64,000 bases of DNA from Bacteroidales bacterium (GTDB lineage: Bacteria; Bacteroidota; Bacteroidia; Bacteroidales; M50B96), in the NCBI GenBank assembly GCA_018401015.1, contig JAGYLP010000004.1, forward strand, positions 19,307 to 83,306. Reading direction: 5' to 3'. The notes below the pieces were generated by a model. That model saw nothing but the letters and a program-made list of their open reading frames with translations. It ran no database searches and had not been told where the DNA came from. The translations under genes were made by a program, and so were the position numbers. Shown here in pieces: positions 8,134 through 50,175 of this stretch (positions within the stretch are counted from its first letter, which is position 1; each line of letters starts with the position of its first letter).

Positions 8134-9867
8134 CTATACATCCTCCTTCGACGCCAAGGGGTACAACTGCTTGAATGCTTCTTTGGGATTCGTATGAGCA
8201 ACATCCCATACCTGAATTGCACTCAAATCAAATTGTGCAATCACTGGCTCCACGAACAAACGACGAACCGAGAGGATAATCGGTCCGGGATACGACCGAA
8301 GTATTCCCTGCAGGCCTTCACTCCAAGCTTTGCCTTCTACCTCGGCCATTCCTACCTCGTCGACAATAAACACATCGGCCTTTGTTTCGAAATCGGACAA
8401 CAGCTTTTTCCCCACCGATAATCCCTCAGGGTGAAAATAAAAACGCCCAACTGCTTCGCTGCCCTCGATAACTTCGGTTTGTAATAATGGATGTTTGGAA
8501 CCGCTTGCCAAATTAAGCAAATAATAGCCACGGGTTTCCTCGTCTTGCATTGTGCGCAAGGACAAAAATCCAGCAGGTTTTACAGAATGCATTTTACATT
8601 CCTCAACCAGCTCTGCAAGAAAACTTGTTTTACCCTCTGCTTTATCGCCGATTAGCATAAAAATTCGCTGTTGGTGTTGCTGACGGTAAGTATAAAGCAA
8701 TCGATCGGCATGTTCCATTAAAACCTGCACCACTTCGAAGGGCGATTTTAAATAAGTGCGGGCCGACGGGAGAATTTGAAGAACAGACCCAACCGACCGG
8801 AAAGATAATTCGAGAGCCTGATGCAATTGTCGGAACCGCGATTGCTTGAAATAATTGACAATAGTCGGATTGTAGAGCTCTTTCCCGATGGCCGAAAAGC
8901 CGAGAATAATTAAAGCAGCTCGAAAGTTCATTTGAATACCTGCCATCAATCCTCCTTTCCAGCCGCCGCCTCCGGATTGAACCGAACCAAGAATTAAGGC
9001 AGCCAAAAGGGTAATGAGCACGAACCAAATCCAGAATTTTGGTTTGGAAAGCTGGCGCATAGCCGACCGATAATGATGGATCCAATACCAAACGATTAGA
9101 AGTGTAAGCGGAACCCAAACATACCAAGGAGCAAGACTAAAGCTTAGTAATCCGCCAATTAACAAAAAGATGTTCAAGACGAGGCGCACCCGCGAAAATT
9201 CAAACGGACCTCCGTAAGAAGGCAATTGTTCCGTCGTATCGAAGGAAATTGTTCGGAGGGAGCTTCCGGTAAGGCGCTTCCCGGCTCTCATGCCAATGAC
9301 TGCCGCCCAAATCCCACTCAACAAATGAATGACTAACAATACAAATATAGGCAACCACACCAGGTCGGTTGTGATGGCCAATTGTTTTTCGGCCATTTGC
9401 ATCAAATGAGTGTAAATATCGACAATGCCGGCTCCGTAGAAAATGATCAAATTCACCACACGCTGCACCAATACCCACGACATGGCAAGCGCAGCGCCCA
9501 CGAGGTAACCCAAAATATTCTTTCCCAAGATTCGAACGGAAATTTCCAGGAGGAGGGCTTCGGTAAAGATGGCGATCATGGGACCGAAAATAACTGCACT
9601 AGGTGAAGCTGTCTTGAGTATAGCAGTAATCAATCCGGCTCGCCAGAATAATCCATTCTCCTTCCAACGATAGTTCACCGAAATGAGCAGGATAAGTGCA
9701 ATACCGGTTAAGATATTTCCGCTAAATGGAAATTTGACATTGTGTAAAAAACTTCCAATTAAGATTTCGCTGGCTGCCCAGGTTGTTCCCAGCACAGAGG
9801 CCTTTAGCCACTTATCGTTTAAACCTCCTGAGCTATGCTTCACTGATGCAGATTTTTTCGGCAGCAT
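8134..9867 (-). CDS. Fusion protein with an N-terminal polytopic membrane domain and a C-terminal small P-loop NTPase (DUF2478/THEP1-like)
   Basis: 577 aa with multiple hydrophobic helices through about aa 330. The C-terminal ~180 aa carries a Walker A-like GDKAEGKTS and a Walker B FIVDEVG. It overlaps the upstream DUF364 gene by 35 nt. Confidence 0.6.
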   Translation of the reverse strand: MLPKKSASVKHSSGGLNDKWLKASVLGTTWAASEILIGSFLHNVKFPFSGNILTGIALILLISVNYRWKENGLFWRAGLITAILKTASPSAVIFGPMIAIFTEALLLEISVRILGKNILGYLVGAALAMSWVLVQRVVNLIIFYGAGIVDIYTHLMQMAEKQLAITTDLVWLPIFVLLVIHLLSGIWAAVIGMRAGKRLTGSSLRTISFDTTEQLPSYGGPFEFSRVRLVLNIFLLIGGLLSFSLAPWYVWVPLTLLIVWYWIHHYRSAMRQLSKPKFWIWFVLITLLAALILGSVQSGGGGWKGGLMAGIQMNFRAALIILGFSAIGKELYNPTIVNYFKQSRFRQLHQALELSFRSVGSVLQILPSARTYLKSPFEVVQVLMEHADRLLYTYRQQHQQRIFMLIGDKAEGKTSFLAELVEECKMHSVKPAGFLSLRTMQDEETRGYYLLNLASGSKHPLLQTEVIEGSEAVGRFYFHPEGLSVGKKLLSDFETKADVFIVDEVGMAEVEGKAWSEGLQGILRSYPGPIILSVRRLFVEPVIAQFDLSAIQVWDVAHTNPKEAFKQLYPLASKEDV

Positions 9868-10636
9868 ATTTAAAAAGATGATAACCGGCGGCTCCTTGCG
9901 TAATAAGTGGGAAAAGCAAATCGGGTTGGGTTATCCGTGTTCCTCCAACATACCGAATCCCATACTTAAAGAAAACTTCGGGTAACAAGTTACTCGATGG
10001 CCCTACCACCACCGTTTCGGTACCGGGCTGAACAAAGCTCAATAGCTTATCGAAAGTTTTATTGACCAGGGTAAGACCGGTAATTAGCAAAAAATCGGCC
10101 TGAGGAATTATTTCCGGATACCGTTCGGCAGGAACATAATATTTACGATGTTGCGGCTCCAATGCATGTTTATTGAATTCTAAAACACTTAATTCACAGC
10201 CCATTGCATCGCAGCGTTGAATATAAGACTGAAAAGCTCCTACCAAAACGACCCGAATACCCGGCTTAACATCGAGCAAATCGAAAGGATCGGTATTCGA
10301 ATGAACGCGATAGGGCTGGGAAGGAAGTAGGCCACTGGCCAATGCATTGATGGTTGCAATCCGTAGCATTTGAATGCTGGCACTCTCTTTCGAAATCTGC
10401 AGTAATTCCGACACAAAATGACCTTCCATGTGCAAAGGAGTAAAGGCCCCAAAATCACGCTTATCCTTGATGCAATGAATATCGGAATCATCAATGGTGC
10501 TCGATAAGCCTAACCAACCGTTATCGAGTCGCACACCGCAAAGGTGTTTCCCGATAACTACCGAATCCAGTCGAGTTTCCTGGCACAATTTGCCATAATC
10601 CGTTAACAGAATTTCCTTTACTTCGTTAATCAGCAT
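9833..10636 (-). CDS. DUF4213/DUF364-type protein (Rossmann-like, 'putative heavy-metal chelation' family)
   Basis: 267 aa. The pattern is ...GVRLDNGWLGLSST... followed by IRVVLVGAF, ADFLLITGLTLVN and VVVGPS. The family was assigned from remembered motif architecture and was not searched. Confidence 0.6.
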   Translation of the reverse strand: MLINEVKEILLTDYGKLCQETRLDSVVIGKHLCGVRLDNGWLGLSSTIDDSDIHCIKDKRDFGAFTPLHMEGHFVSELLQISKESASIQMLRIATINALASGLLPSQPYRVHSNTDPFDLLDVKPGIRVVLVGAFQSYIQRCDAMGCELSVLEFNKHALEPQHRKYYVPAERYPEIIPQADFLLITGLTLVNKTFDKLLSFVQPGTETVVVGPSSNLLPEVFFKYGIRYVGGTRITQPDLLFPLITQGAAGYHLFKYAAEKICISEA

Positions 10637-11009: not shown

Positions 11010-12161
11010 CTAGTCGATTTCCAAATTCTCGTCGGAAATAATATCGGGCAAAATTACACTGATGGTAGTTCCGACACCTACTTCCGAATGCAGTTTAATG
11101 TCGCCTTTGTAGAGGGCTACCATCTTTTTAACGATGGATAAGCCAAGACCGGAGCCACTGATATTGCGGGTTTGAGCGTTTTTGATACGACTAAACTCCT
11201 GAAACAACTGGGTTTGATCCTCGGCGCTAATGCCTATTCCTGTATCGATTACCTGGATAGTCACCTTATCGCGTTTCCGGTCGAGTACAACCGTTACCTT
11301 CCCTCCATCGCGATTATACTTCACGGCATTGCTAATGAGGTTATTCAGAATAATCTCCATTTCTTCGGAATCGGCAATGAAGTAGAAGGGTTTATCGGTC
11401 GATAATTCCATGTGGAGGTTACGTTGAATAGCCATTGGCTCCATGGTGTGGATGGCCAGGGTGGCTATTTCGGCCAAGTCGACTTTTTTCAGGAAGCGTC
11501 GTTTTTTGCCGGTTTCAATGCGGGTGAGATCGAGCATATCCATAATCAGATTGCGCATACCAGCCATCCGGACGAGCGATCGTTCGATCATTTCCATATA
11601 ATCGTCGAGTTGGTCGCCAACTTGTTTTTCCTTCATGATTCGAAGGTAGCCCTCCACTGCATTGATAGGCGATTTTAGCTCGTGCGACAGAACGGAAAGG
11701 AATTGAAAGCGGATTTGCTTTCCTTCTTCGTTCATGCGCTGGGTCATCCGCTTCAGAAACAGATGCTTGGTTAAATTTTCAATGGCCGATCGCAACTCCT
11801 GAGGTGTAAATGGCTTAGGCACAAAATTGTAAGCTCCATTACGGGTTGCTTTTACCGCTAAATCCAGACTCGCATAACTGGTAATCATCATCACCATCGC
11901 ATCGAGGTTCATGCGCTTAATTTGCTCGAGCAAATCGATTCCTTGTATGCCGGGCAATTTATTGTCGAGCATAATGATATCGACCGTTTCGCGCTCAATA
12001 ATCGCTAAGCCTTCCTCTCCACTGGCTGCCTCTTTTATTTCGAAACCAAAATCTTGGTCCATAAAAGGGAAACCAACCTCATAGTGTTGGAGTACCCGCC
12101 GAATACCACTGCGAATGCCGGGTTCGTCGTCTACAACCAATACCACTAATTTATTTTCCAT
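11010..12161 (-). CDS. Hybrid receiver-histidine kinase (REC-HisKA-HATPase_c)
   Basis: 383 aa. REC: LVVDDEPGIRSG, IIMLDNKLPG, FVPKPF. H-box: SHELKSPINA. N-box: NLISNAVKYN. G-boxes: DTGIGI and GSGLGLSI. Confidence 0.9.
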   Translation of the reverse strand: MENKLVVLVVDDEPGIRSGIRRVLQHYEVGFPFMDQDFGFEIKEAASGEEGLAIIERETVDIIMLDNKLPGIQGIDLLEQIKRMNLDAMVMMITSYASLDLAVKATRNGAYNFVPKPFTPQELRSAIENLTKHLFLKRMTQRMNEEGKQIRFQFLSVLSHELKSPINAVEGYLRIMKEKQVGDQLDDYMEMIERSLVRMAGMRNLIMDMLDLTRIETGKKRRFLKKVDLAEIATLAIHTMEPMAIQRNLHMELSTDKPFYFIADSEEMEIILNNLISNAVKYNRDGGKVTVVLDRKRDKVTIQVIDTGIGISAEDQTQLFQEFSRIKNAQTRNISGSGLGLSIVKKMVALYKGDIKLHSEVGVGTTISVILPDIISDENLEID

Positions 12162-12163
12162 GA

Positions 12164-12568
12164 TTATAACTTTAGGAGTCGATTGATTTCGCGGTGTAAT
12201 TGATCGCTACGGATACCTTTTTCCATAAAAATATCGGCTTTCACCCACGACCGATTCGATTCACGCTCCATTTCGAATTTGATACCGGTGTCGCGGGTAA
12301 CGCTGGTAGCGATTGCTACGGGTACATCGGGATACATTTGTTTGCATTTATAAGCCAACACAAATCCTGCATCCTGAGTCTCCATCATCAAATCCAAAAT
12401 AGCCATATCGGGCTTGGTGGCTTCGAGAATCTCGAGGGCTTCTTTCTTACTCTCGGCGGTGAGCACCTCAAATCCGAAATGACTAATCTGCCATTTCATT
12501 TGGTTCAGGTAATCGATATCGTCATCGACCAATAAAATGGTCTTCTTTTTTAAAGTCTCTGCTGTCAT
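12164..12568 (-). CDS. Stand-alone response-regulator receiver protein
   Basis: ILLVDDD ... KPDMAILDLMMET ... FMEKG. There is no output domain. The track start at 12577 is TTG, with ATG at 12568. Its stop lies 2 nt before the next gene's start. Confidence 0.85.
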   Translation of the reverse strand: MTAETLKKKTILLVDDDIDYLNQMKWQISHFGFEVLTAESKKEALEILEATKPDMAILDLMMETQDAGFVLAYKCKQMYPDVPVAIATSVTRDTGIKFEMERESNRSWVKADIFMEKGIRSDQLHREINRLLKL

Positions 12569-12658
12569 GGCATTCAATGTATTACGATTAAACTAATTGA
12601 TCTTAAATACTGTAGCTCCACAAACCGGAGCATTTTTTAAAATTTATTTCTGATGCGT

Positions 12659-14638
12659 TTACTTAGGCAAATGAATGATAAAATGGGTTCCGGTAGGTCC
12701 TTTCTCCGGTTGATTATTGGTTTCTACTTCAATTTTTCCATGATGCATTTTAATGATGCCATATACTAAGGGCAAACCGAGCCCTGTTCCTTTTCCAATT
12801 CCCTTTGTAGTAAAAAAGGGGGTGAAAATTTTATCCATATTTTCCGGCGAAATACCGGTACCGTTGTCGGATACCCGTATCTCAAAGGTTTCATCGTGCT
12901 CTTTTAAGTGTACGCTTAGCGTTCCTCCGTGTGGCATGGCCTCAATGGCATTTTTTTCCAGATTGGTAAGCACTTGCATCATTTGATCGTAATCGAAAAA
13001 GGCAATGGCACGCTGAACATCGCTCGAAAACTCGACCTGAACATTATCTGGAACAACCACCGATTGAAGACTTTGTTTACAAAATTCAACGAGGGAATAT
13101 TCCGATTTCTGAAGCTGATTCTTTCGAGCAAAATTAAGCAATCCACCTACTATTTTTTTGCAACGGTCGGCTTGTTCAGCAATCAATTCAACATCGTTGC
13201 GGGTTGGATCGTCCTGCGCTAATTCATCGAGCAAAATATTGCTATACATGGTTATTACGCCGAGCGGATTATTGAGCTCGTGAGCAATCCCGGCCGATAG
13301 TTGCCCCATGTTAGCCAATTTCTCCTGATGCTTGAGGGCTCGTTTGGCATCGTCGAGCAAATGATTAGATTGATCCAGTGCACTGAGCGACTGGTGAAGT
13401 TTTTCGATGGCATAGGGTAAGCACATTTCTATTTCGGCTAATCCGTCGATGATGGCCATAGCATGTTTCTCGCAGGTAGAATAGCCGCATGCTCCGCAAT
13501 TGAGATGATCGCTGCTATCGTATTTGCCCATTTCGGCCAACACATGATCGATTCGTTCGCGGGTAGGGGTTTTTGAACGCCGGTCCATGATTTGAAACGA
13601 CTGGCTCATATCGAGTTGCCCGATGAAATCGAGGTCCACTTGCCACTTCGACCAATCCAGGCGGGCGAGCTTCGAGGCTACATAATTTGCTACATGAGCT
13701 TTTCGCTGATAGCGTTTCCCTTGTGGCGACATACCGGGTCCCATGATGCATCCTTCGCAACTTAACAATTCGACATGCCGCGCTTTAATTTCTCCCGAAT
13801 CGAGTGCTTGAATCACCTCGCGAACATTTTGTTTCCCTTCGGCTACAACTACATCGCCCGACAATAAATCGTCGTGCAGCCCCATGGTATGCAACATTCC
13901 TTTACTCACAGGAAATACCGCTCCTTTAGCTGCGTGAGGTGGATCGAAATCGGTTATTTTTCCAGCTTCATAGGTAACCTGGCGTGCGTTAAAAACCTGC
14001 CTTAGTTCCTGAAAAGTGATCACACAATCGACCTCGTTCGATTCAGCCTTCTTGGCAATGCATGGTCCGATGAAAACAACTTTGGGATTCCGAGGAGCAT
14101 ATTTTTCTTTCAAGTAACGCGTCATGGCCACCATTGGAGAGGCCACCCTGGCAAGGCTCGATACTAGTTTAGGGTAATATTGCTCAATGTAGTAAACAAT
14201 GGCCGGACAATCGGATGAGATGAAGATTTCCTGGTCCGATTCACGCTGAAGCTTTTGGTAAGCCTGAGCAACGGCATCGGCTCCAAAGCCGACCTCTACG
14301 GCGAGCTTAAAGCCCAAATCGCGGAGCATGGGTACGAGAGCCCTAGGATCGTCGAACTCGTCGAACTCGGCTGGAAACGAGGGAGCCACGGCGGCAATTA
14401 CAAAGTCGTTTGAATCCAGCATTTCAAGCAACTCGTTGGTATTGGAGACATAAATTTTGGCACCCTGACTGCAAACCTTAACGCAATTTCCACAAGCAAT
14501 GCAGCGTTCGCCAAGAACTTCGGCTTGTCCATTGATGATTTTAATGGCTTTAGCCGGGCACTCACGAACGCAGGTATAGCATACCCTGCATTTGTTCATC
14601 AGTGTTTCCACTACATATTTGCCATTACCGTGACTCAT
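12659..14638 (-). CDS. Soluble sensor histidine kinase with an [FeFe]-hydrogenase-like (H-domain) input module; putative H2/redox sensor
   Basis: 659 aa with no TM segment. It has two Cx2Cx2Cx3C ferredoxin motifs (C17.., C46..). H-cluster-like signatures are SSDCPAI, GPCIAKKAE and ELLSCEGCIMGPG. A Cx2Cx4Cx16C motif spans C381-C406. The HisKA motif is IAHELNNPLG. The HATPase_c domain includes GTGLGLPLV. Confidence 0.85.
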   Translation of the reverse strand: MSHGNGKYVVETLMNKCRVCYTCVRECPAKAIKIINGQAEVLGERCIACGNCVKVCSQGAKIYVSNTNELLEMLDSNDFVIAAVAPSFPAEFDEFDDPRALVPMLRDLGFKLAVEVGFGADAVAQAYQKLQRESDQEIFISSDCPAIVYYIEQYYPKLVSSLARVASPMVAMTRYLKEKYAPRNPKVVFIGPCIAKKAESNEVDCVITFQELRQVFNARQVTYEAGKITDFDPPHAAKGAVFPVSKGMLHTMGLHDDLLSGDVVVAEGKQNVREVIQALDSGEIKARHVELLSCEGCIMGPGMSPQGKRYQRKAHVANYVASKLARLDWSKWQVDLDFIGQLDMSQSFQIMDRRSKTPTRERIDHVLAEMGKYDSSDHLNCGACGYSTCEKHAMAIIDGLAEIEMCLPYAIEKLHQSLSALDQSNHLLDDAKRALKHQEKLANMGQLSAGIAHELNNPLGVITMYSNILLDELAQDDPTRNDVELIAEQADRCKKIVGGLLNFARKNQLQKSEYSLVEFCKQSLQSVVVPDNVQVEFSSDVQRAIAFFDYDQMMQVLTNLEKNAIEAMPHGGTLSVHLKEHDETFEIRVSDNGTGISPENMDKIFTPFFTTKGIGKGTGLGLPLVYGIIKMHHGKIEVETNNQPEKGPTGTHFIIHLPK

Positions 14639-14650
14639 CTTTCTATTCCT

Positions 14651-16378
14651 CTATTTCAAAATATCTTCCCGAATACGATAGCGTGTATGCAATAAGTGAT
14701 GCGCAATTTCACTGTTTGGTTCACCCAAAAAGCTTCGATATAATTCAATCACCTCCGGATTTTTATGCGATACCCGCAAGGATTCTTTCATATCGGCTGA
14801 ATAAATGGTTTGCATACGAGCAGCCAGTGCTTCCGGACTGGCGCCAATTTTTTGTCCGCCGCCTCCAATACATCCACTCGGACAAGCCATTACTTCAACA
14901 AAATGTAAGTCGTTGCGACCGGCTCGAATTTCATCGAGCAAGACTTTGGCATTGCTTATTCCGTTTACCACGGCTACTCCTAGGGTCAATCCATTCACTT
15001 CGACTTTCGCTTCTTTTCGGCCAGCTAAACCACGTAATTCTTTAATTTGGAATTTAATCAGCTCTTCACCGGTTAGTTTCCAATAGGCGGTACGAATCGC
15101 AGCTTCCATTACACCTCCTGTTACACCAAAGAGCTTTCCGGCGGTACTACGTGCACCCAAAGGTGAATCGGTTATTTCCGGCTCCAACTTGTGAATATCG
15201 ACTCCATAAAGCTTGATGAATCGGGCCAGCTCGCGGGTAGTTAAAATCGCATCCACATCTACAATTCCTTTGGAAACCATTTCTTCGCGCTGTGCTTCGA
15301 ATTTTTTTGCTGTACAAGGCATGATCGAAACAGAGTAGATATCTTCCTTCCGCAAATTCATTCTCTCGGCAAAATAGGTTTTTATTACAGCTCCCATCAT
15401 TTGCTGTGGCGATTTACAAGAAGACAACAAAGGGAGCAGGTCGCCGGCAAATTCCTCGGCGTACTTTACCCATCCCGGGCAGCAACTTGTCATGAGGGGT
15501 AATCGTTCATTTTTCTGAATCCGATCGATTAATTCAGTCGATTCTTCCATAATCGTTAAATCGGCTGCAAAGGTGGTGTCGAAGATAAAATCGAATCCCA
15601 ATTTCCGAAGAGCGGCATTCATTACACCATTGATATCCAATCCGGGTTCCATGTTAAACTCTTCGGCCAGCGAAACAGAAATAGAGGGGGCGTACTGCAC
15701 CACTACTACTTTTTTCGGATTGGCCAGGGCATCCTGAATCTCGGCAAAGTGATTTTTTTCGGTTAAAGCTCCGGTTGGACAAACCATGATGCACTGTCCG
15801 CAATTAATGCAACTGGAAACATTCAAGCCTCGATTGTAGGTTGTACTAATAATCGATTGACTACCGCGATTGGCAAAATCGATACAAGCAACACCCATGG
15901 TTTCCTCGCAAACCACAACACATCGTCCGCATAAAATACACTTCGAAGGATCGCGCACAATGGAAGCCGAACTCATATCGAGATGATAATTATTCTTTTC
16001 GCCTCGAACCCGACGGTCGTCAACATGCAGTTCTTCTGCTAAGTCCTGTAGTTCGCAATTTTTGTTTCGAACGCAATACAAACAGTCGTCGGGATGATTC
16101 GACAGCAGCAACTCAACGATGGTTTTTCTCGATTCTGCCACACGCTGCGATTGAGTATCAATGCGCATCCCTTGCTCAACCGGATGAGAGCACGAGGTGA
16201 TGAGCTTACCATTACTTTTATTTTCTACCACACACATCCGGCAGGCTCCGGTTGGGAGTTTATCTTTCATGTGACATAGCGTGGGTATTTTAATCCCAAT
16301 TCGGCTCAGCACATCGAGCAAATATTCTCCGGATTGAACCGGAACTTGTTCTTTATTGATTTCTATCGTGAAGTCCAT
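14651..16378 (-). CDS. hydA: [FeFe]-hydrogenase catalytic subunit HydA (trimeric, NAD(P)H/ferredoxin-linked type)
   Basis: 575 aa with an N-terminal 2Fe-2S domain and 4Fe-4S motifs (CILCGRCVVVC, CINCGQCIMVCP). The canonical H-cluster signatures are TSCCPGW, MPCTAKKFE and EVMACPSGCIGGGGQ. Confidence 0.93.
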   Translation of the reverse strand: MDFTIEINKEQVPVQSGEYLLDVLSRIGIKIPTLCHMKDKLPTGACRMCVVENKSNGKLITSCSHPVEQGMRIDTQSQRVAESRKTIVELLLSNHPDDCLYCVRNKNCELQDLAEELHVDDRRVRGEKNNYHLDMSSASIVRDPSKCILCGRCVVVCEETMGVACIDFANRGSQSIISTTYNRGLNVSSCINCGQCIMVCPTGALTEKNHFAEIQDALANPKKVVVVQYAPSISVSLAEEFNMEPGLDINGVMNAALRKLGFDFIFDTTFAADLTIMEESTELIDRIQKNERLPLMTSCCPGWVKYAEEFAGDLLPLLSSCKSPQQMMGAVIKTYFAERMNLRKEDIYSVSIMPCTAKKFEAQREEMVSKGIVDVDAILTTRELARFIKLYGVDIHKLEPEITDSPLGARSTAGKLFGVTGGVMEAAIRTAYWKLTGEELIKFQIKELRGLAGRKEAKVEVNGLTLGVAVVNGISNAKVLLDEIRAGRNDLHFVEVMACPSGCIGGGGQKIGASPEALAARMQTIYSADMKESLRVSHKNPEVIELYRSFLGEPNSEIAHHLLHTRYRIREDILK

Positions 16379-16396
16379 TTCGCTTTCTTATTAAGT

Positions 16397-18340
16397 TTAA
16401 AAAATTTCGATAGCATCGAATTTACAAGCCTCCTGACAAGCTCCGCAGGCAATACACTTCTCTTCGATAATGAAATGCGGCGTTTTTTTGGCTCCTATTA
16501 TCGCTTGAGTCGGACATTTTTTCAAACAAACCATACAACCAGTGCATGCTTCGACATTGATTCGGAAGATGCGCAACTCGGTGCAAACTCCTGCGCGGCA
16601 TTTCCGGTCGAAAATGTGCTCTTCGTACTCATCTTTGAACCAACGCAAAGTGCTCAATACGGGGTTTGGAGCAGTCTGTCCCAATCCGCATAAGGAGGTA
16701 TCTTTAATCACCTCGGCTAAACGCTCAAGTTGCATCAAACTTTTTATCCGCTCCAAGGCTTCGTAGCGCTCTTCGTGAACCGGCTTTTTGGTTATAGTTT
16801 CTAATATCTCCAACATCCGCTTTGTTCCCTCGCGACAAGGAATACACTTTCCGCAACTTTCGCGCTGAATGAAGTCCATGAAATATTTTGCCAAGTCCAC
16901 CATGCAAGTGTCTTCGTCCATCACCACCAAACCTCCGGAACCCATCATGGCGCCAACCTTTATCAGCGATTCATAATCGATTTTGATATCCAGATTGGCC
17001 TCGGTAATACAACCTCCCGACGGACCTCCAATTTGCACAGCTTTGAATTTCTTTTTATTGAGAATTCCACCGGAAATGGTGAAAATCACGTCGCGAATGG
17101 TAGTACCCATGGGAATCTCGACCAATCCGGTTAAAGCAACTTTCCCCGACATGGCAAATACTTTTGTTCCTTTCGATGTTTCGGTGCCGATAGAAGCAAA
17201 CCAATCGATTCCTTTAGCTATAATTTCTGGAATATTGGCCAAGGTTTCCACGTTGTTAATAATGGTTGGTTTCTGAAACAATCCGCTTATCGCAGGAAAT
17301 GGCGGACGTGGACGAGGCATTCCGCGTTTACCTTCGATGCTGTGAATAAGCGCTGTTTCTTCGCCGCAAACAAATGCTCCAGCACCCATTTTTACTTTGA
17401 TATCGAAGGATATTCCCGTGCCAAAAATATTTTCTCCCAACAAACCATATTCCCGGGCCTGATCCAGTGCAATTCGTAATCGCTTAATAGCCAGCGGATA
17501 TTCAGCCCGAATATACACATAAGCTATACTGGCTCCGATTCCGTAAGCTGCAATGGCCATTCCTTCGAGCAAGCGATGAGGATCGCCTTCGATAACGGCT
17601 CTATCCATGAATGCACCGGGGTCACCTTCGTCGGCATTGCAAATCAAATATTTCTGTGTGGAATTTTGGGCTAAGGCAAATTTCCATTTTTTACCGGTAG
17701 GGAAACCGCCGCCACCACGACCTCGCAAGCCCGACTTTTCAATCATATCGCACACTTCGGCCGACGTATGCTGACGAATAATGCGCAAGAAACTGGCATA
17801 TCCTCCGGCTGCAATATATTCTTCGATGCTAACCGGATCCAGAATACCGCAGTTCTTCAAAACCAATCGGGTTTGAGGAGCGAAAAAGGGATGCTCGTGC
17901 AAAAACGGAACGGCTAGCCAGCTGCGATTACCCTGATCAAATTGCATTAGTGAAGCAGTATAATCGACTTCGAGGGTAAAGATTTTATCGAGTAATCCAG
18001 CCACCTTTTCTTGTGTTACTTGTTGAAAAGAAATGCGATTATAGCCGGGTAATTGAACATCGAGGATAGGCTCGGCCGAGCACAAACCAATACAACCAAC
18101 CTCGATTACCTGAGCATCGATGGATTGTTGTTCTAAATACGATTTAACAGCAGCTAAGGTTTTGTCGGCTCCTGCGCCTAATCCGCAGGTTCCAGCTCCG
18201 ATATAAATAACGGGCTTGCTTACCTCCTTCCGCAATAAATGCTGAAGCCTTTGCTCATCGAGCTGTACATTATCGTATTTCCCTTTGCTTAAGAGCGTTG
18301 TGAGAAATTCTTTATTGCTTGGGTTTTTCTTCCTGGCCAT
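16397..18340 (-). CDS. hydB: Hydrogenase flavoprotein subunit HydB (NuoF-like)
   Basis: 647 aa with a thioredoxin-like 2Fe-2S N-terminus. FMN/NADH site GRGGGGFPTGKKW and SCGKCIPCREG. Two C-terminal 4Fe-4S motifs: CTGCMVCLKKCP and CIACGACQEACK. Confidence 0.9.
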   Translation of the reverse strand: MARKKNPSNKEFLTTLLSKGKYDNVQLDEQRLQHLLRKEVSKPVIYIGAGTCGLGAGADKTLAAVKSYLEQQSIDAQVIEVGCIGLCSAEPILDVQLPGYNRISFQQVTQEKVAGLLDKIFTLEVDYTASLMQFDQGNRSWLAVPFLHEHPFFAPQTRLVLKNCGILDPVSIEEYIAAGGYASFLRIIRQHTSAEVCDMIEKSGLRGRGGGGFPTGKKWKFALAQNSTQKYLICNADEGDPGAFMDRAVIEGDPHRLLEGMAIAAYGIGASIAYVYIRAEYPLAIKRLRIALDQAREYGLLGENIFGTGISFDIKVKMGAGAFVCGEETALIHSIEGKRGMPRPRPPFPAISGLFQKPTIINNVETLANIPEIIAKGIDWFASIGTETSKGTKVFAMSGKVALTGLVEIPMGTTIRDVIFTISGGILNKKKFKAVQIGGPSGGCITEANLDIKIDYESLIKVGAMMGSGGLVVMDEDTCMVDLAKYFMDFIQRESCGKCIPCREGTKRMLEILETITKKPVHEERYEALERIKSLMQLERLAEVIKDTSLCGLGQTAPNPVLSTLRWFKDEYEEHIFDRKCRAGVCTELRIFRINVEACTGCMVCLKKCPTQAIIGAKKTPHFIIEEKCIACGACQEACKFDAIEIF

Positions 18341-18342
18341 GA

Positions 18343-18807
18343 TTACTCGCTTTCTAAGTTTCTATAATGTTCCAAAATATCATCGATATCGGCGGGTTTC
18401 AGCTTGGCATGAAACTCACCATTGATACTGATTACCGGTGCTAACCCGCAAGCTCCAATGCAGGCTACTACCTCGAGGCTGAACAAGCCATCGCGGGCGG
18501 TAGAACCCGCTTTTATTTTCAATCGCTTTTCCAATTCAGCTTGCACCGTTGAAGAGCCAAGTACGTGGCAGGCTGTCCCACGACAAACCTGTATGTGGTA
18601 CTTACCCTGGGGTTCGAATCGAAACTGATTATAAAAAGTAGCCACCCCAAAGATCTTACTAGTAGGCAGTTGAAGATGCTTGCCCACTTCAACTATGGAA
18701 TCTTCCGATAAATAACCGGCCTGTTCCTGAATTGCCTGAAGAATAGGAATCAGATGTTCCCGCTTTCCGTCGGGGTATTGTTTGAGTATGGTGCTAATGG
18801 AAGCCAT
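18343..18807 (-). CDS. hydC: Hydrogenase 2Fe-2S subunit HydC (NuoE-like)
   Basis: 154 aa with the NuoE-type cluster motifs CRGTACHV ... CIGACGLAP. Its stop lies 2 nt before the hydB start. Confidence 0.9.
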   Translation of the reverse strand: MASISTILKQYPDGKREHLIPILQAIQEQAGYLSEDSIVEVGKHLQLPTSKIFGVATFYNQFRFEPQGKYHIQVCRGTACHVLGSSTVQAELEKRLKIKAGSTARDGLFSLEVVACIGACGLAPVISINGEFHAKLKPADIDDILEHYRNLESE

Positions 18808-18852
18808 CGTGGTTAAGTTTTAATGAAAAGTTAGGTACCGTTGAATAACTTA

Positions 18853-19353
18853 CTAGTTCTTGAGAATACGGTGAATCTCGGGTAAAAGCTTGTCGGACGA
18901 AACCGGCTTGCGAATGAATCCGTTTACAGGAAAAAATACGCTTTCACCCCGCTCGGTACGATAATCTACTCCGGCATCGCCGGTATCGATATTTTTTAAC
19001 AGAATAACCTCTAAATCGCGGTAGTTCGGATCGTTACGAAACTCACGAGCCATTTCCTGAACACCAGGACGCGTCGTAACCAACACATCAATCGAGGTTT
19101 GCATCAATACCGGGGTACCCCGAAAATGGACATCGTCTTTAATCTCCTTCGCCAATTCAAATCCCTCATAAGGGGTTTCCATCATAACATCTAAGATGGC
19201 TAAGTCGGGTTTCCAGCTTTTTACCAGCTTCATTCCCTCCGATTTGTTCCCGGCCGATAAAACTTCGTAACCTTCGCGCTTTAAAATTGCTTCTACAATG
19301 GTGATGACATCTACATCGTCGTCGACCAATAAAATTTTCTTTTTCGTTTCCAT
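18853..19353 (-). CDS. Stand-alone response-regulator receiver protein with an internal insertion
   Basis: 166 aa: ILLVDDD ... KPDLAILDVMMET ... MQTSI ... (long insert) ... FIRKP. It is a paralogue of the REC at 12164-12568 and the first gene of the hyd module. Confidence 0.85.
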   Translation of the reverse strand: METKKKILLVDDDVDVITIVEAILKREGYEVLSAGNKSEGMKLVKSWKPDLAILDVMMETPYEGFELAKEIKDDVHFRGTPVLMQTSIDVLVTTRPGVQEMAREFRNDPNYRDLEVILLKNIDTGDAGVDYRTERGESVFFPVNGFIRKPVSSDKLLPEIHRILKN

Positions 19354-19431
19354 GGTTAATCCTCCATTTTAGGTTGAACTTATTTTCCTTCTCCCCGCTT
19401 ATCTTTTCTGAAGTAAAAGTAAAGTATGAAC

Positions 19432-19441
19432 CCCACGTGGG
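19432..19441. promoter_or_regulatory. Perfect 10-bp palindrome CCCACGTGGG in the divergent promoter region; candidate operator
   Basis: Read directly from the sequence, about 80 nt upstream of the REC/hyd operon start (19353). Confidence 0.3.
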
Positions 19442-19544
19442 TGAGGCAAGTTCTTCCCATTCGTAGAGGGAAATCTTTCCCTTTTTGGGGCAATAAAAAC
19501 CAGTACTTTTACGCAATAATCCCCACTAAAAAAAGCAGGGAACA

Positions 19545-48167: not shown

Positions 48168-50175
48168 ATGGATTTTAAACTCGTTTCAGACTTCAAACCA
48201 ACCGGCGATCAGCCGGAAGCTATCCGGCAATTGGTCGATGGGTTTCAGCAAGGAATGCCTTATCAGACCTTATTGGGAGTAACCGGTTCGGGTAAAACCT
48301 TCACGGTGGCAAATGCCATTGCTCAACTGAACCGACCTGTATTGGTTCTTTCGCATAATAAAACACTCGCAGCTCAACTTTATGGCGAGTTCAAGCAGTT
48401 CTTTCCCGAAAATGCCGTAGAGTATTTCCGTATCCTACTACGATTATTATCAACCCGAAGCGTATTTGCCGGTGAGCGATACCTACATCGAAAAAGATTT
48501 ATCGATCAATGAAGAAATTGAAAAACTACGCCTAAGTGCCACTTCTGCTCTCCTGTCGGGCCGACGAGATGTGATCGTGGTTTCGTCCGTTTCATGCTTA
48601 TACGGAATTGGTAATCCAGAGGATTTTCATGCCAATGTTACCCGCGTAACCGTTGGACAAACCATTAGCCGAAATAAAATGCTTCTCCAATTGGTCGAAG
48701 CACTTTATGCACGAAATGAAGTGGTTTTTAAGCGAGGTACTTTTCGTGTTAAAGGAGACAATGTCGATATCTTCATTGCTTATGGCGACGTGGCTTATCG
48801 CATTACTTTCTGGGGCGACACCATCGAGGAGATTATCAGCTTCGACCCTGAAACAGGGCACACTCTCGAACATCTGAACGAAGCGGTGATTTACCCGGCT
48901 AACATCTTTGTAACCACCAAAGAACGAATGCATAAAGCGATTCGGGGAATCCAGGACGATATGCTTGCGCAGGTCACCTATTTCAAAGAAATTGGAAAAT
49001 ACGGCGAAGCCAAACGGCTCGAAGAACGCGTAAGTTACGATCTGGAAATGATCAAAGAACTTGGATACTGTTCCGGTATCGAAAACTATTCACGTTACTT
49101 CGACGGACGCCCCACGGGGACTCGACCGTTCTGTTTATTGGATTATTTCCCGCAGGATTTCGTCACGGTCATTGATGAGAGCCATGTAACGATTCCACAA
49201 ATCCATGCTATGTATGGTGGAGATTATTCCAGAAAGAAAAACCTGGTTGAATATGGATTTCGATTACCCGCTGCCTTGGACAATCGTCCGCTGAAATTTC
49301 ACGAATTCGAGAACTTGGTCAATCAGCTTCTATTTGTAAGTGCCACCCCTGCCAATTATGAATTAGAAAAATCGGAAGGGATTATCGTTGAACAAGTTAT
49401 TCGTCCAACCGGACTATTAGATCCGCTCATCGAAGTGCGTCCTTCGATGCACCAAATAGACGATCTGGTACAGGAGATGAAAAAGCGGATTGCCCTCAAA
49501 GAACGGGTGCTGGTAACCACCCTCACCAAACGCATGGCAGAAGAATTGTCCAAATACCTCGAAAAAATTTCCATTGCCTGTACTTACATTCACTCCGACA
49601 TTGACACCATGGATCGAATCGAAATCATGGATGGACTTCGCTCCGGAAAATTTGACGTCCTTATTGGGGTAAACCTACTCCGCGAAGGCTTAGATTTACC
49701 GGAGGTGAGTTTAGTTGCCATTCTCGATGCCGATAAAGAAGGCTTCCTGCGCTCGGAACGATCCCTAACACAAACAGCAGGGAGAGCCGCTCGAAATGTC
49801 AATGGATTGGTCGTGATGTATGCCGATAAAATAACCGATAGCATGCGACGCACCATCGACGAGACCAATCGGCGCAGGAGTAAGCAGATCAGCTACAACG
49901 AAGAGCACGGCATCACCCCTCGATCCATTAAAAAAGCAACGGGCAGCCTTATGGGTCGATTCGATGAAATAACCCGATCCTACACCGAACCAGCGAAAGT
50001 CGATATAGCCGCCGATCCGGTGGTGAAATACATGAAGCCCGATGCGCTCAAAAAAGCCATTGAAAAAACCAAAGCGGCCATGAAGAAAGCCGCTTCCGAG
50101 CTAGATTTTATCGAAGCAGCCCGATTACGCGACGAGATGTACGATTTGGAACGATTATTAAAAGAACGGAGTTGA
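48168..50175 (+). pseudogene. uvrB: uvrB (excinuclease ABC subunit B) interrupted by a single-base insertion near 48428-48429. This is either a true frameshift or a sequence error.
   Basis: Track ORFs 48168..48512 and 48466..50175 are in different frames. The first encodes the UvrB N-terminus ([15 protein letters not shown], ...ENAVEYF) and then nonsense. Reading gag tat ttc [c] gta tcc tac tac gat tat tat caa ccc gaa restores the universal [23 protein letters not shown]. That sequence runs into the second ORF, which carries the helicase motifs and the C-terminal UVR motif LDFIEAARLRDEMYDLE. Confidence 0.9.

Follow-up and report, generated by a model that had tools for sequence, protein, structure and literature searches.

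A conserved hydABC gene cluster of Bacteroidales with a hydrogenase-like histidine kinase, a second kinase and three receiver domains: a candidate hydrogen-responsive two-component system

Results

A seven-gene cluster combines a hydrogenase, two kinases and three receiver domains

We analysed a 64,000-nucleotide stretch of DNA, hereafter called the window, from the assembly of a Bacteroidales bacterium (GenBank GCA_018401015.1, contig JAGYLP010000004.1, positions 19,307 to 83,306); proteins identical to those of the window are also present in assembly GCA_018400275.1. The cluster under study consists of seven genes, all on the minus strand between positions 19353 and 11010 of the window. The first one, REC166 (18853..19353), encodes a single-domain receiver into which ~40 residues rich in beta strands are inserted between alpha4 and beta5. 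It is followed by the genes for HydC (18343..18807), a NuoE-like [2Fe-2S] subunit, HydB (16397..18340), a NuoF-like flavin/NADH subunit with a C-terminal pair of [4Fe-4S] clusters, and HydA (14651..16378), the catalytic [FeFe]-hydrogenase subunit. Next comes HydS-HK (12659..14638), a protein of 659 residues in which a predicted sensory-type [FeFe]-hydrogenase domain is fused to a HisKA/HATPase kinase, without a PAS domain. The last two genes encode REC137 (12164..12577 from a TTG start), a single-domain receiver related to REC166 and lacking the insert, and REC-HK (11010..12161), a receiver-controlled histidine kinase made of a receiver, a dimerisation and histidine phosphotransfer (DHp) domain and a catalytic and ATP-binding (CA) domain, with no further sensor domain. 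For REC137, gene callers use the ATG at 12568 as the start, which gives a protein of 134 residues.

The cluster had been picked out earlier by a sequence-only reading of the window, as a row of co-directional genes separated by 2-90 nt. A check of the open reading frames (ORFs) confirmed all seven on the minus strand, with gaps of 45, 2, 18, 12, 81-90 and 2 nt in gene order, and the Pfam architectures bore out the count of two kinases and three receiver domains. As the gaps are short and no intrinsic terminator was predicted in them on the coding strand, we infer that the seven genes are co-transcribed as a single operon. The stem-loop that follows REC-HK was no better than shuffled sequence (z = −0.63). 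The genes on either side are unrelated to the cluster: a divergent ABC transporter upstream and, after 373 nt, a DUF4213/DUF364 gene downstream.

The gene order is conserved in many species

Related loci (cited below by their L numbers) were fetched with a profile of REC166 relatives, keeping one genome per species, and the seven window proteins were then mapped onto them. Loci with at least 700 nt of downstream sequence were used to score which gene follows REC166, and those with at least 9.3 kb to score the full order. The next gene after REC166 was hydC in 25 of 30 species, and in 34 of 39 orthologue loci when metagenome loci were included. The complete order REC166-hydC-hydB-hydA-HydS-HK-REC137-REC-HK was found in 20 of the 22 loci long enough to show it, the mapped proteins being ~57% to 71% identical to those of the window. 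The cluster was found again in at least 20 species, and the seven-gene arrangement is far beyond chance. The proposal that this receiver subfamily is linked to hydrogenase loci is therefore strongly borne out. The relatives are annotated as Bacteroidales or Bacteroidota metagenome-assembled genomes (MAGs).

The hydrogenase is of the trimeric HydABC type

HydC matched the Pfam family 2Fe-2S_thioredx (E = 4.5e-51) as well as NCBIfam NuoE families, and HydB matched Complex1_51K, NADH_4Fe-4S and Fer4. HydA scored 799 bits against the NCBIfam model FeFe_hydrog_A6, whose cut-off is 765, and its translation retains the catalytic motifs TSCCPGW, MPCTAKKFE and EVMACPSGC. A HydA with N-terminal 2Fe-2S and 4Fe-4S clusters and an H-domain, together with a NuoF-like HydB and a NuoE-like HydC, is the composition of the trimeric enzymes (HydDB A3; NCBIfam 'A6, NADH-dependent'), and by sequence the hydrogenase of the cluster belongs to this type.

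A second, more distant hydCBA set was seen in L036 (6433-10387) and L035, and upstream of REC166 in L006 and L010; its HydA is 46% identical, and its HydB was matched over only ~60% of its length. In L035 and L036, this distant hydCBA is directly followed by a gene for a 129-residue receiver of the REC166/REC137 family, without insert and with no kinase nearby.

HydS-HK carries the hallmarks of sensory [FeFe]-hydrogenases and is directly fused to a kinase

By Pfam, HydS-HK is composed of Fer4, Fe_hyd_lg_C (E = 7.6e-46), FeS (PF04060, E = 4.6e-10), HisKA and HATPase_c domains. The fusion occurs very commonly: the best 120 database matches, all of about 660 residues, share this architecture, and the named ones among them come from Bacteroidales or Bacteroidota MAGs, with one Saprospiraceae. 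The eight Cys of the Fer4 part, the H-cluster Cys (C144, C193, C294 and C297) and the four Cys of a C-terminal Cx2Cx4Cx16C motif (C381, C384, C389 and C406) were invariant in 22 orthologues. The same was true of the kinase residues H453, N563, D591/G593/G595 and G617/G619, which belong to the H, N, G1 and G2 boxes. With its H-box His and its N, G1 and G2 boxes, HydS-HK qualifies as a class I (HisKA) histidine kinase. The closest family matches of its kinase core were AtoS (182 bits) and ZraS (164 bits).

Residues of HydS-HK were equated with those of the hydrogenase CpI by a motif alignment made by eye. The position of CpI C299 is occupied by D143 (SSDCP) and that of M353 by G191 (GPC), both invariant in the 22 orthologues, and the M497 region is altered, reading L-(C/S)-C at 292-294. 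The positions equivalent to C299, M353 and M497 are those altered in sensory enzymes (PMC10055695), and the Cx2Cx4Cx16C [4Fe-4S] motif has been described in HydS proteins (PMC8163306). Judged by these sequence hallmarks, the sensor domain of HydS-HK is a sensory-type (HydS, group C-like) [FeFe]-hydrogenase.

No Pfam match to a PAS domain was found after the FeS domain, where proteins of the TmHydS-like (M2f) type have one. In the AlphaFold model of HydS-HK, residues 305-440 are all helical, so that no PAS beta-sheet is predicted in this region; C406 lies at the base of a helix (407-438) that runs into the DHp helix bearing H453.

The two stand-alone receivers are paralogues without a recognisable output domain

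Response_reg was the sole Pfam match of both REC166 and REC137, the match ending at profile position 83-85 of 111 (positions 1-85 are covered in REC166). In a BLASTP comparison the two proteins were 32% identical (E = 8e-23), with one gap of 38 residues in REC137, and both contain the motifs ILLVDDD and KPD(L/M)AILD(V/L)MMET..GF. By sequence they are paralogues, as had been proposed. Both show the features of single-domain response regulators: acidic pocket, phospho-Asp, Ser/Thr, aromatic switch and Lys, with no output domain. Residues D11-13, D55, S87, F146, K149 and P150 of REC166 were invariant in 44 orthologues, and so were residues A102, R106, D130 and Y131 of its insert. In REC137, D18-20, D62, T/S91, Y/F117 and K120 were conserved in 22 orthologues.

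The insert of about 40 residues between the conserved Ser/Thr and Lys positions of REC166, already seen in the bare sequence, was recovered both in the alignment and in the AlphaFold model. The model (mean predicted local distance difference test, pLDDT, 91.2; predicted template modelling score, pTM, 0.87) has the usual (beta-alpha)5 fold of a receiver, to which strands at 90-93, 116-121, 127-132 and 138-143 are added between alpha4 and beta5. A Foldseek search of this model against the PDB returned only receivers of ~120 residues, for instance RR468, the receiver of RpaA, PhoP, DivK and Spo0F, with template modelling (TM) scores of ~0.62 by query length and ~0.84 by target length. Since all fold matches are such receivers, no solved structure offers a counterpart of the insert, nor does the insert correspond to any known output domain. 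The absence of an output domain, first noted by eye, thus held up: neither Pfam, NCBIfam nor the comparison of the REC166 model (pLDDT 91) with the PDB uncovered a cryptic DNA-binding or enzymatic domain, and the small receivers showed the receiver only.

REC166 has an isoelectric point (pI) of 5.07 and its insert one of 4.5, values that speak against DNA binding by REC166; in size and acidity alike, the insert is unlike a DNA-binding domain, being too small and its pI too low. In a profile search of 1.84 billion representative proteins, full-length matches to REC166 made up only ~15 clusters at 50% identity, and by sequence REC166 forms a small, tight subfamily.

REC-HK has the architecture of a receiver-controlled kinase and could be wired to HydS-HK

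Pfam places a Response_reg domain at residues 7-128 of REC-HK, HisKA at 153-218 and HATPase_c at 264-372, and finds no other sensor domain. D11, D12, T94, K116, H160 and the G1 (DTGIG) and G2 (GSGLGL) motifs were invariant in 25 orthologues at the positions checked, and with H160 and these two motifs REC-HK also qualifies as a class I (HisKA) histidine kinase. As its own receiver is its sole sensor, REC-HK is by architecture a receiver-controlled kinase, of which LvrB is the prototype. Of the 63 PDB matches of REC-HK with E ≤ 1e-10, the best 60, as listed, do not include LvrB (8vc9); by sequence, the two proteins resemble each other in architecture only and are not close homologues.

The family matches of the kinase and receiver parts suggest an order of transfer. 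The REC-HK receiver was closest to a NosR-family regulator, LuxO, FixJ, NtrC, AtoC and NtrX, and the REC-HK kinase core to PnpS, PhoR, WalK and HK853. REC166 matched PhoB, PleD, DivK and YycF best, and by fold RR468, the partner of HK853. The cluster contains no histidine phosphotransferase (Hpt or Spo0B-like), the sole HPTransfase match being weak (E = 0.004) and lying inside the HATPase region of HydS-HK, so that a His-Asp-His-Asp phosphorelay is not what the genes describe. A search for covariation between the specificity helices of kinases and receivers in 21 clusters gave no usable signal, because the kinase helices are near-invariant. Among 21 loci there is hardly any variation in the DHp helices of HydS-HK and REC-HK or in alpha1 of the REC-HK receiver, and the alpha1 helix of REC137 (residues 21-34, window 12476-12517) is highly variable across them.

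Sister cassettes without hydrogenase genes, and an association with NarL/LuxR regulators

In L016 (1109-4609), L038 (10001-13503) and L020, REC166 is followed by a membrane kinase with a Cache_3-Cache_2 sensor and then by REC-HK, and neither hydCBA nor REC137 is present. The kinase core of the Cache-sensor protein is 62% identical to that of HydS-HK. These three loci therefore define the core cassette as REC166, a kinase and REC-HK, with an exchangeable input module; and since the cassette occurs without hydrogenase genes, REC166 is not a dedicated subunit of HydABC. In this minimal version the adjacent kinase is plausibly the only evident phosphodonor of REC-HK, and REC166 the only receiver left for REC-HK to act on.

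A NarL/LuxR-type regulator adjoins the cassette in 17 of 30 species, with or without its kinase. The complete pair consists of a kinase of ~699 residues (Cache_3-Cache_2, PAS and HisKA_3) and a regulator of 216 residues (receiver and GerE). In L009, L012, L015, L018, L022, L027, L028, L029 (7005-9824), L030 and L033 it immediately precedes REC166 on the same strand; in L005 and L013 it is found further upstream, and in L016, L020, L021, L026 and L038 it comes directly after REC-HK. The 64-kb window itself holds no NarL-type regulator gene. Five species have, immediately upstream of REC166, a receiver-only gene of NarL type (L005 9522-9995 and L013 9505-9960, for example), whose product shares 28-44% identity with the receiver domain of the L029 regulator. 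The acidic pocket and the phospho-Asp position of the L013 copy appear degenerate. Finally, in proteins P0241-P0245 (~310 residues) a NarL-type receiver and a linker are fused to REC166, which sits in the place of the helix-turn-helix (HTH) domain; between the N-terminus of P0241 and the receiver domain of the L029 regulator, identity is 30% (E = 2e-23).

A conserved box and a candidate promoter upstream of REC166

A 20-bp box, TTGCGTAAAAGTACTGGTTT, called box A (19497..19516, minus strand), begins 163 nt before the REC166 ATG and is a conserved candidate cis-element. It occurs once in the window, for 0.02 occurrences expected by chance. Similar boxes were found in ~20 of 33 loci, in either orientation and with 0-5 mismatches, two or fewer in most cases, 129-179 nt upstream of the REC166 ATG in most loci and at 281 and 585 nt in two; loci with the box include L004, L009, L010, L012, L014, L029 and L030, which like the window have it at 129-171 nt. 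The box has been kept across species whose proteins are only ~60% identical. It is also present in the Cache-sensor loci, each locus having one copy, and where a NarL regulator gene is present, the box sits between that gene and REC166. A scan of metagenomes with the exact pattern gave 120 matches, 17 of which had REC166 and hydC at a fixed distance. Those of the others that were examined lie within unrelated genes and are probably chance matches, so that box A appears specific to this operon, with no visible regulon; the single box per locus speaks against a regulon as well.

Box A is followed by one or two 'AAAAnnRGTA' repeats spaced by ~21-23 bp, some of which form 5-bp dyads, AGGGA-N6-TCCCT in the window and AGGTA-N6-TACCT in L029 and L030. 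In L027, a full palindrome, AAACCAGTA-ATTA-AGTACTGGTTT, stands in place of box A ~190 nt upstream of REC166, which suggests that AGTACTGGTTT is the actual half-site.

About 100 nt downstream of box A and ~60 nt upstream of the REC166 ATG lies a candidate −7 promoter element, TACTTTTAC (19413..19421, minus strand). Its TA..TTT columns were invariant in an alignment of 14 upstream sequences and visible in 22 loci, and an element of the form TAnnTTT(A/G)C was kept in all aligned loci. It matches the Bacteroidetes −7 consensus, TAnnTTTG, and may be the promoter element of the operon. Between the repeats and this element, the window has a perfect 10-bp palindrome, CCCACGTGGG (19432-19441), which was not seen upstream in other species. 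Loci of Lentimicrobiaceae type (L008, L009, L011, L012 and L019) have palindromes ATTGTGAAATTAGTAACAAT and ATTGTTAATAAAATAACAAT on both sides of the −7 element; judged by consensus, these resemble Rex or CRP/FNR operators.

Other forms of control of this region found no backing. For a structured leader RNA or riboswitch, RNAalifold predicted 0 pairs in the 14 sequences and Rfam gave nothing relevant. The TGG...TTGC motif of the window, a possible sigma-54 promoter, was judged by eye to have a spacing two bases short and is not conserved. Control by Rex was not retained either: a gene for this redox-sensing repressor stands beside a lone REC166-type gene, directly upstream of it, only in L032 (1-1101), and no Rex-like operator was found near the operon of the window.

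Discussion

A linear cascade towards an off-locus regulator

We propose that the cluster forms a two-component system of several steps which responds to hydrogen and acts back on the HydABC operon through a linear kinase cascade and a NarL-type regulator encoded away from the locus, a reading to which we give a probability of about one half. Hydrogen would bind to and reduce the intact H-cluster of HydS-HK, and electrons would pass from there to the accessory clusters. The balance between kinase and phosphatase activities would then depend on the redox state of the C-terminal Cx2Cx4Cx16C cluster, C406 abutting the helix that leads into H453 with no PAS domain in between. HydS-HK, with its core of ZraS/AtoS/NtrB type, would phosphorylate the NtrC/LuxO-like receiver of REC-HK, as family matching and the minimal cassette suggest. 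REC-HK, whose core is PhoR/WalK/HK853-like, would in turn phosphorylate the single-domain receivers, which are PhoB/DivK/RR468-like, REC166 being the effector. REC137, found only in the hydrogenase version of the cassette, is probably a sink or a competitor.

The last step is the most speculative one. Phosphorylated REC166 would contact a protein partner through its beta insert, on the alpha4-beta5-alpha5 side. The adjacency of NarL/LuxR regulators, their receiver-only paralogues and the fusions make the receiver of such a DNA-binding regulator, encoded outside the 64-kb window, the most likely partner, and this regulator would control the promoter region with box A upstream of REC166. A more general form of this step is that REC166 is a new kind of receiver, acting itself as the output module by means of its insert and pairing upon phosphorylation either with a NarL/LuxR receiver or with HydABC; the hydrogen signal would then be passed on by receiver-receiver pairing, of which the fusions would be a Rosetta-stone trace. 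We regard this form as doubtful. If it were true, the signal would reach gene expression or enzyme activity without a DNA-binding output domain on REC166.

Several observations weigh against the proposed cascade. No NarL-type regulator adjoins the cassette in 13 of the 30 loci, nor in the window. NarL-type regulators normally pair with HisKA_3 kinases, and as one such kinase adjoins, the neighbouring pair could be an independent system. The matching of kinases to receivers at the family level is only a heuristic, and the matches of the REC-HK receiver are mixed, NosR-family, FixJ and NarL types standing beside the NtrC types. The AlphaFold model of HydS-HK, on which the path from C406 to H453 relies, is of moderate confidence only (pLDDT 69.7). 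The receiver that follows the kinase-less hydCBA of L035 and L036 hints at a more direct link between receiver and hydrogenase. Lastly, the alpha1 helix of a receiver usually carries the residues for partner specificity, and its variability in REC137, set against the near-invariant DHp helices of the kinases, fits poorly with a tightly specified substrate.

Other wirings and other outputs

The sequence-only reading had described the genes as a branched phosphorelay. Its count of kinases and receivers stands; the branched relay was not established, as no Hpt or Spo0B-like protein was found, and we favour the linear two-tier cascade indicated by family matching and by the minimal Cache-sensor cassette. 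A branched scheme in one step can nevertheless be drawn, in which HydS-HK phosphorylates all three receivers, REC166 and REC137 serve as phosphate sinks or in a DivK-like allosteric feedback on the kinases, and REC-HK relays to an unlinked DNA-binding regulator. The active sites are intact in all three receivers, and REC137 directly follows HydS-HK. REC166 and REC137 also share the beta3 loop motif KPD(L/M)AILD(V/L)MM, so that one phosphodonor could serve both, and a sink of loose specificity would agree with the variable alpha1 helix of REC137; in the case of LvrB, too, effector and kinase are unlinked (PMC13269768). The scheme is rather unlikely in our view. HydS-HK has a core of NtrB/ZraS type, whereas REC166 and REC137 are closest to PhoB, DivK and RR468; a mere sink would not need a strictly conserved insert of 40 residues, nor would one expect it to stand in for the HTH domain when fused to a NarL-type receiver.

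As to the output, two possibilities had been raised, direct control of HydABC by protein contacts or a regulator encoded elsewhere, on the ground that no output is visible in the window. The latter point was upheld. A phmmer search found no further receiver or kinase ORF in the 64 kb, and Pfam scans of the 20 largest neighbouring ORFs revealed no transcription factor and no hydE, hydF or hydG, which disposes of a regulator, a second receiver or a maturase within the window by these searches. Of the two outputs, the regulator elsewhere gained support, with NarL types in 17 of 30 species and the fusions, and direct control became less likely given the hydrogenase-less cassette. In its strict form direct control would be post-translational, phosphorylated REC166, REC137 or both binding HydABC and tuning its activity or direction to hydrogen with no transcriptional output. 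It would suit the position of REC166 immediately upstream of hydC in 25 of 30 species, the receiver of the same family placed directly after the second hydCBA type in L035 and L036 with no kinase nearby, the lack of any DNA-binding domain among the cluster proteins and the 20 scanned neighbours, and the acidity of REC166 (pI 5.07), more suited to binding protein than DNA. Yet REC166 stands with a Cache-sensor kinase and REC-HK, and no hydrogenase genes, in L016, L020 and L038, its fusion partners are NarL-type receivers and not hydrogenase subunits, and the conserved, operon-specific box upstream argues for transcriptional control. We therefore judge exclusively direct control quite unlikely.

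The nature of the input can be questioned too. HydS-HK might not sense hydrogen at all and instead report the redox state of ferredoxin or NADH through its FeS clusters, or be a fourth catalytic or electron-transfer subunit of HydABC whose kinase signals flux. Mutants of prototypical enzymes indicate that proton relay could persist with an Asp at the CpI C299 position. The two N-terminal [4Fe-4S] sites of HydS-HK could take electrons from a partner, and sensing by group C enzymes is still described as putative (PMC8924675). This seems very unlikely to us, given that all three hallmark second-sphere positions are changed as in sensory enzymes (PMC10055695), that the catalytic residues of the kinase are invariant, and that this kinase core also occurs joined to an extracellular Cache sensor, the N-terminal module behaving as an exchangeable input.

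Comparison with known systems

The closest functional parallels are the [NiFe] systems HoxBC-HoxJ-HoxA of Cupriavidus necator and HupUV-HupT-HupR of Rhodobacter capsulatus (HydDB group 2b, PMC5037454), in which a low-activity hydrogenase likewise serves as hydrogen sensor and, with a histidine kinase and receiver proteins, controls the genes of an energy-converting hydrogenase. By analogy, the cluster would be their functional [FeFe] counterpart. It differs in that the [NiFe] sensor is unrelated to [FeFe] enzymes and separate from its kinase, that the output of the Hox and Hup systems is a visible DNA-binding regulator of NtrC type, and that these have one kinase and one regulator instead of two kinases and three receivers.

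Among [FeFe] enzymes, HydS-HK resembles the putative sensory HydS proteins of groups C and D, such as TmHydS of Thermotoga maritima, TamHydS of Thermoanaerobacter mathranii, HydS of Ruminococcus albus and HfsB of Thermoanaerobacterium. It shares with them intact H-cluster ligands, the altered C299, M353 and M497 positions, the Cx2Cx4Cx16C motif and a gene placed beside a trimeric HydABC operon (PMC10055695, PMC8163306). In these HydS proteins PAS is the only signalling domain, where there is one, and their links are with Ser/Thr kinases and phosphatases or AraC-type regulators, whereas in HydS-HK the FeS domain passes directly into a DHp-CA kinase. Nearer still is group C1, 'histidine kinase-linked (putative)', a predicted class of [FeFe]-hydrogenases since HydDB (PMC5037454). 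Group C1/C3 proteins with HATPase or His-kinase domains beside A3 hydrogenases have been reported in Hydrogenedentota (PMC11406978) and Cloacimonadota (PMC8542988). The likeness lies in a hydrogenase-like sensor associated with or fused to a histidine kinase, often adjoining group A3 HydABC genes. These proteins are known from genome surveys only, with no receivers, second kinase or pathway described, and in the C1 proteins of Hydrogenedentota H-cluster motifs are reportedly not recognisable, whereas none of the ligands varies in HydS-HK. As histidine-kinase-linked sensory hydrogenases are already a predicted class, the cluster adds a variant and not a new category. Full-text literature searches returned no description of the seven-gene arrangement, its receivers, the second kinase, the REC166 insert, the Cache-sensor sister cassette or the NarL association.

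For the wiring, the precedent is the Lvr pathway of pathogenic Leptospira, a two-tier cascade from LvrA to LvrB (Rec-DHp-CA) to LvrC, in which the upstream kinase phosphorylates the receiver of the adjoining receiver-controlled kinase (PMC13269768). The effector LvrC is encoded elsewhere and acts by protein-protein contact (PMC13269768), so that both the two tiers and an unlinked effector have been seen before. The Lvr proteins have no close homology to those of the window, the input signal and the effector are others, and LvrC is a receiver fused to an anti-sigma domain. As for the stand-alone receivers, CheY, DivK, Spo0F and RR468 are, like REC166, of receiver fold with a full active site and no output domain, and act via protein contacts or as phosphate shuttles or sinks. 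REC166 departs from the solved receivers that it matched by its conserved insert of ~40 residues between alpha4 and beta5.

Experimental work asks how the signal of a sensory [FeFe]-hydrogenase is transduced (PMC8163306), and reviews call the sensory role putative (PMC8924675). In the present cluster, sensor and histidine kinase form one protein without an intervening domain, and the genes for its likely substrates lie together with those of HydABC in one conserved arrangement, so that the signalling question reduces to standard assays and a directly testable, possible route of bacterial hydrogen sensing becomes available. The system is widespread among uncultured anaerobic Bacteroidales of sediments, digesters and guts, habitats where the partial pressure of hydrogen decides whether fermentation and syntrophy are feasible. 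The cluster is also a compact candidate part for hydrogen biosensors. It offers a receiver subfamily with an unexplained conserved insert, and a natural example of one kinase cascade that takes either a cytoplasmic metallo-sensor or an extracellular Cache sensor.

Neighbouring genes

The 20 neighbouring ORFs scanned with Pfam are housekeeping genes, a TonB receptor and a type-IX-secreted peptidase. Downstream of the cluster, at 8134-10636 on the minus strand, the gene of the DUF4213/DUF364 protein ('putative heavy-metal chelation') overlaps by 35 nt the ORF of a 577-residue protein made of a polytopic membrane domain and a C-terminal NTPase_1 (THEP1-like) domain. L001, a contig of the same species, is the only fetched locus in which these two genes stand beside the cluster. 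In the UvrB-like ORF at 48466-50175 (plus strand), the UvrB-interaction domain starts already at residue 61 and the N-terminal helicase part seems to be missing; this ORF may reflect a frameshift, a mis-called start or a truncated gene.

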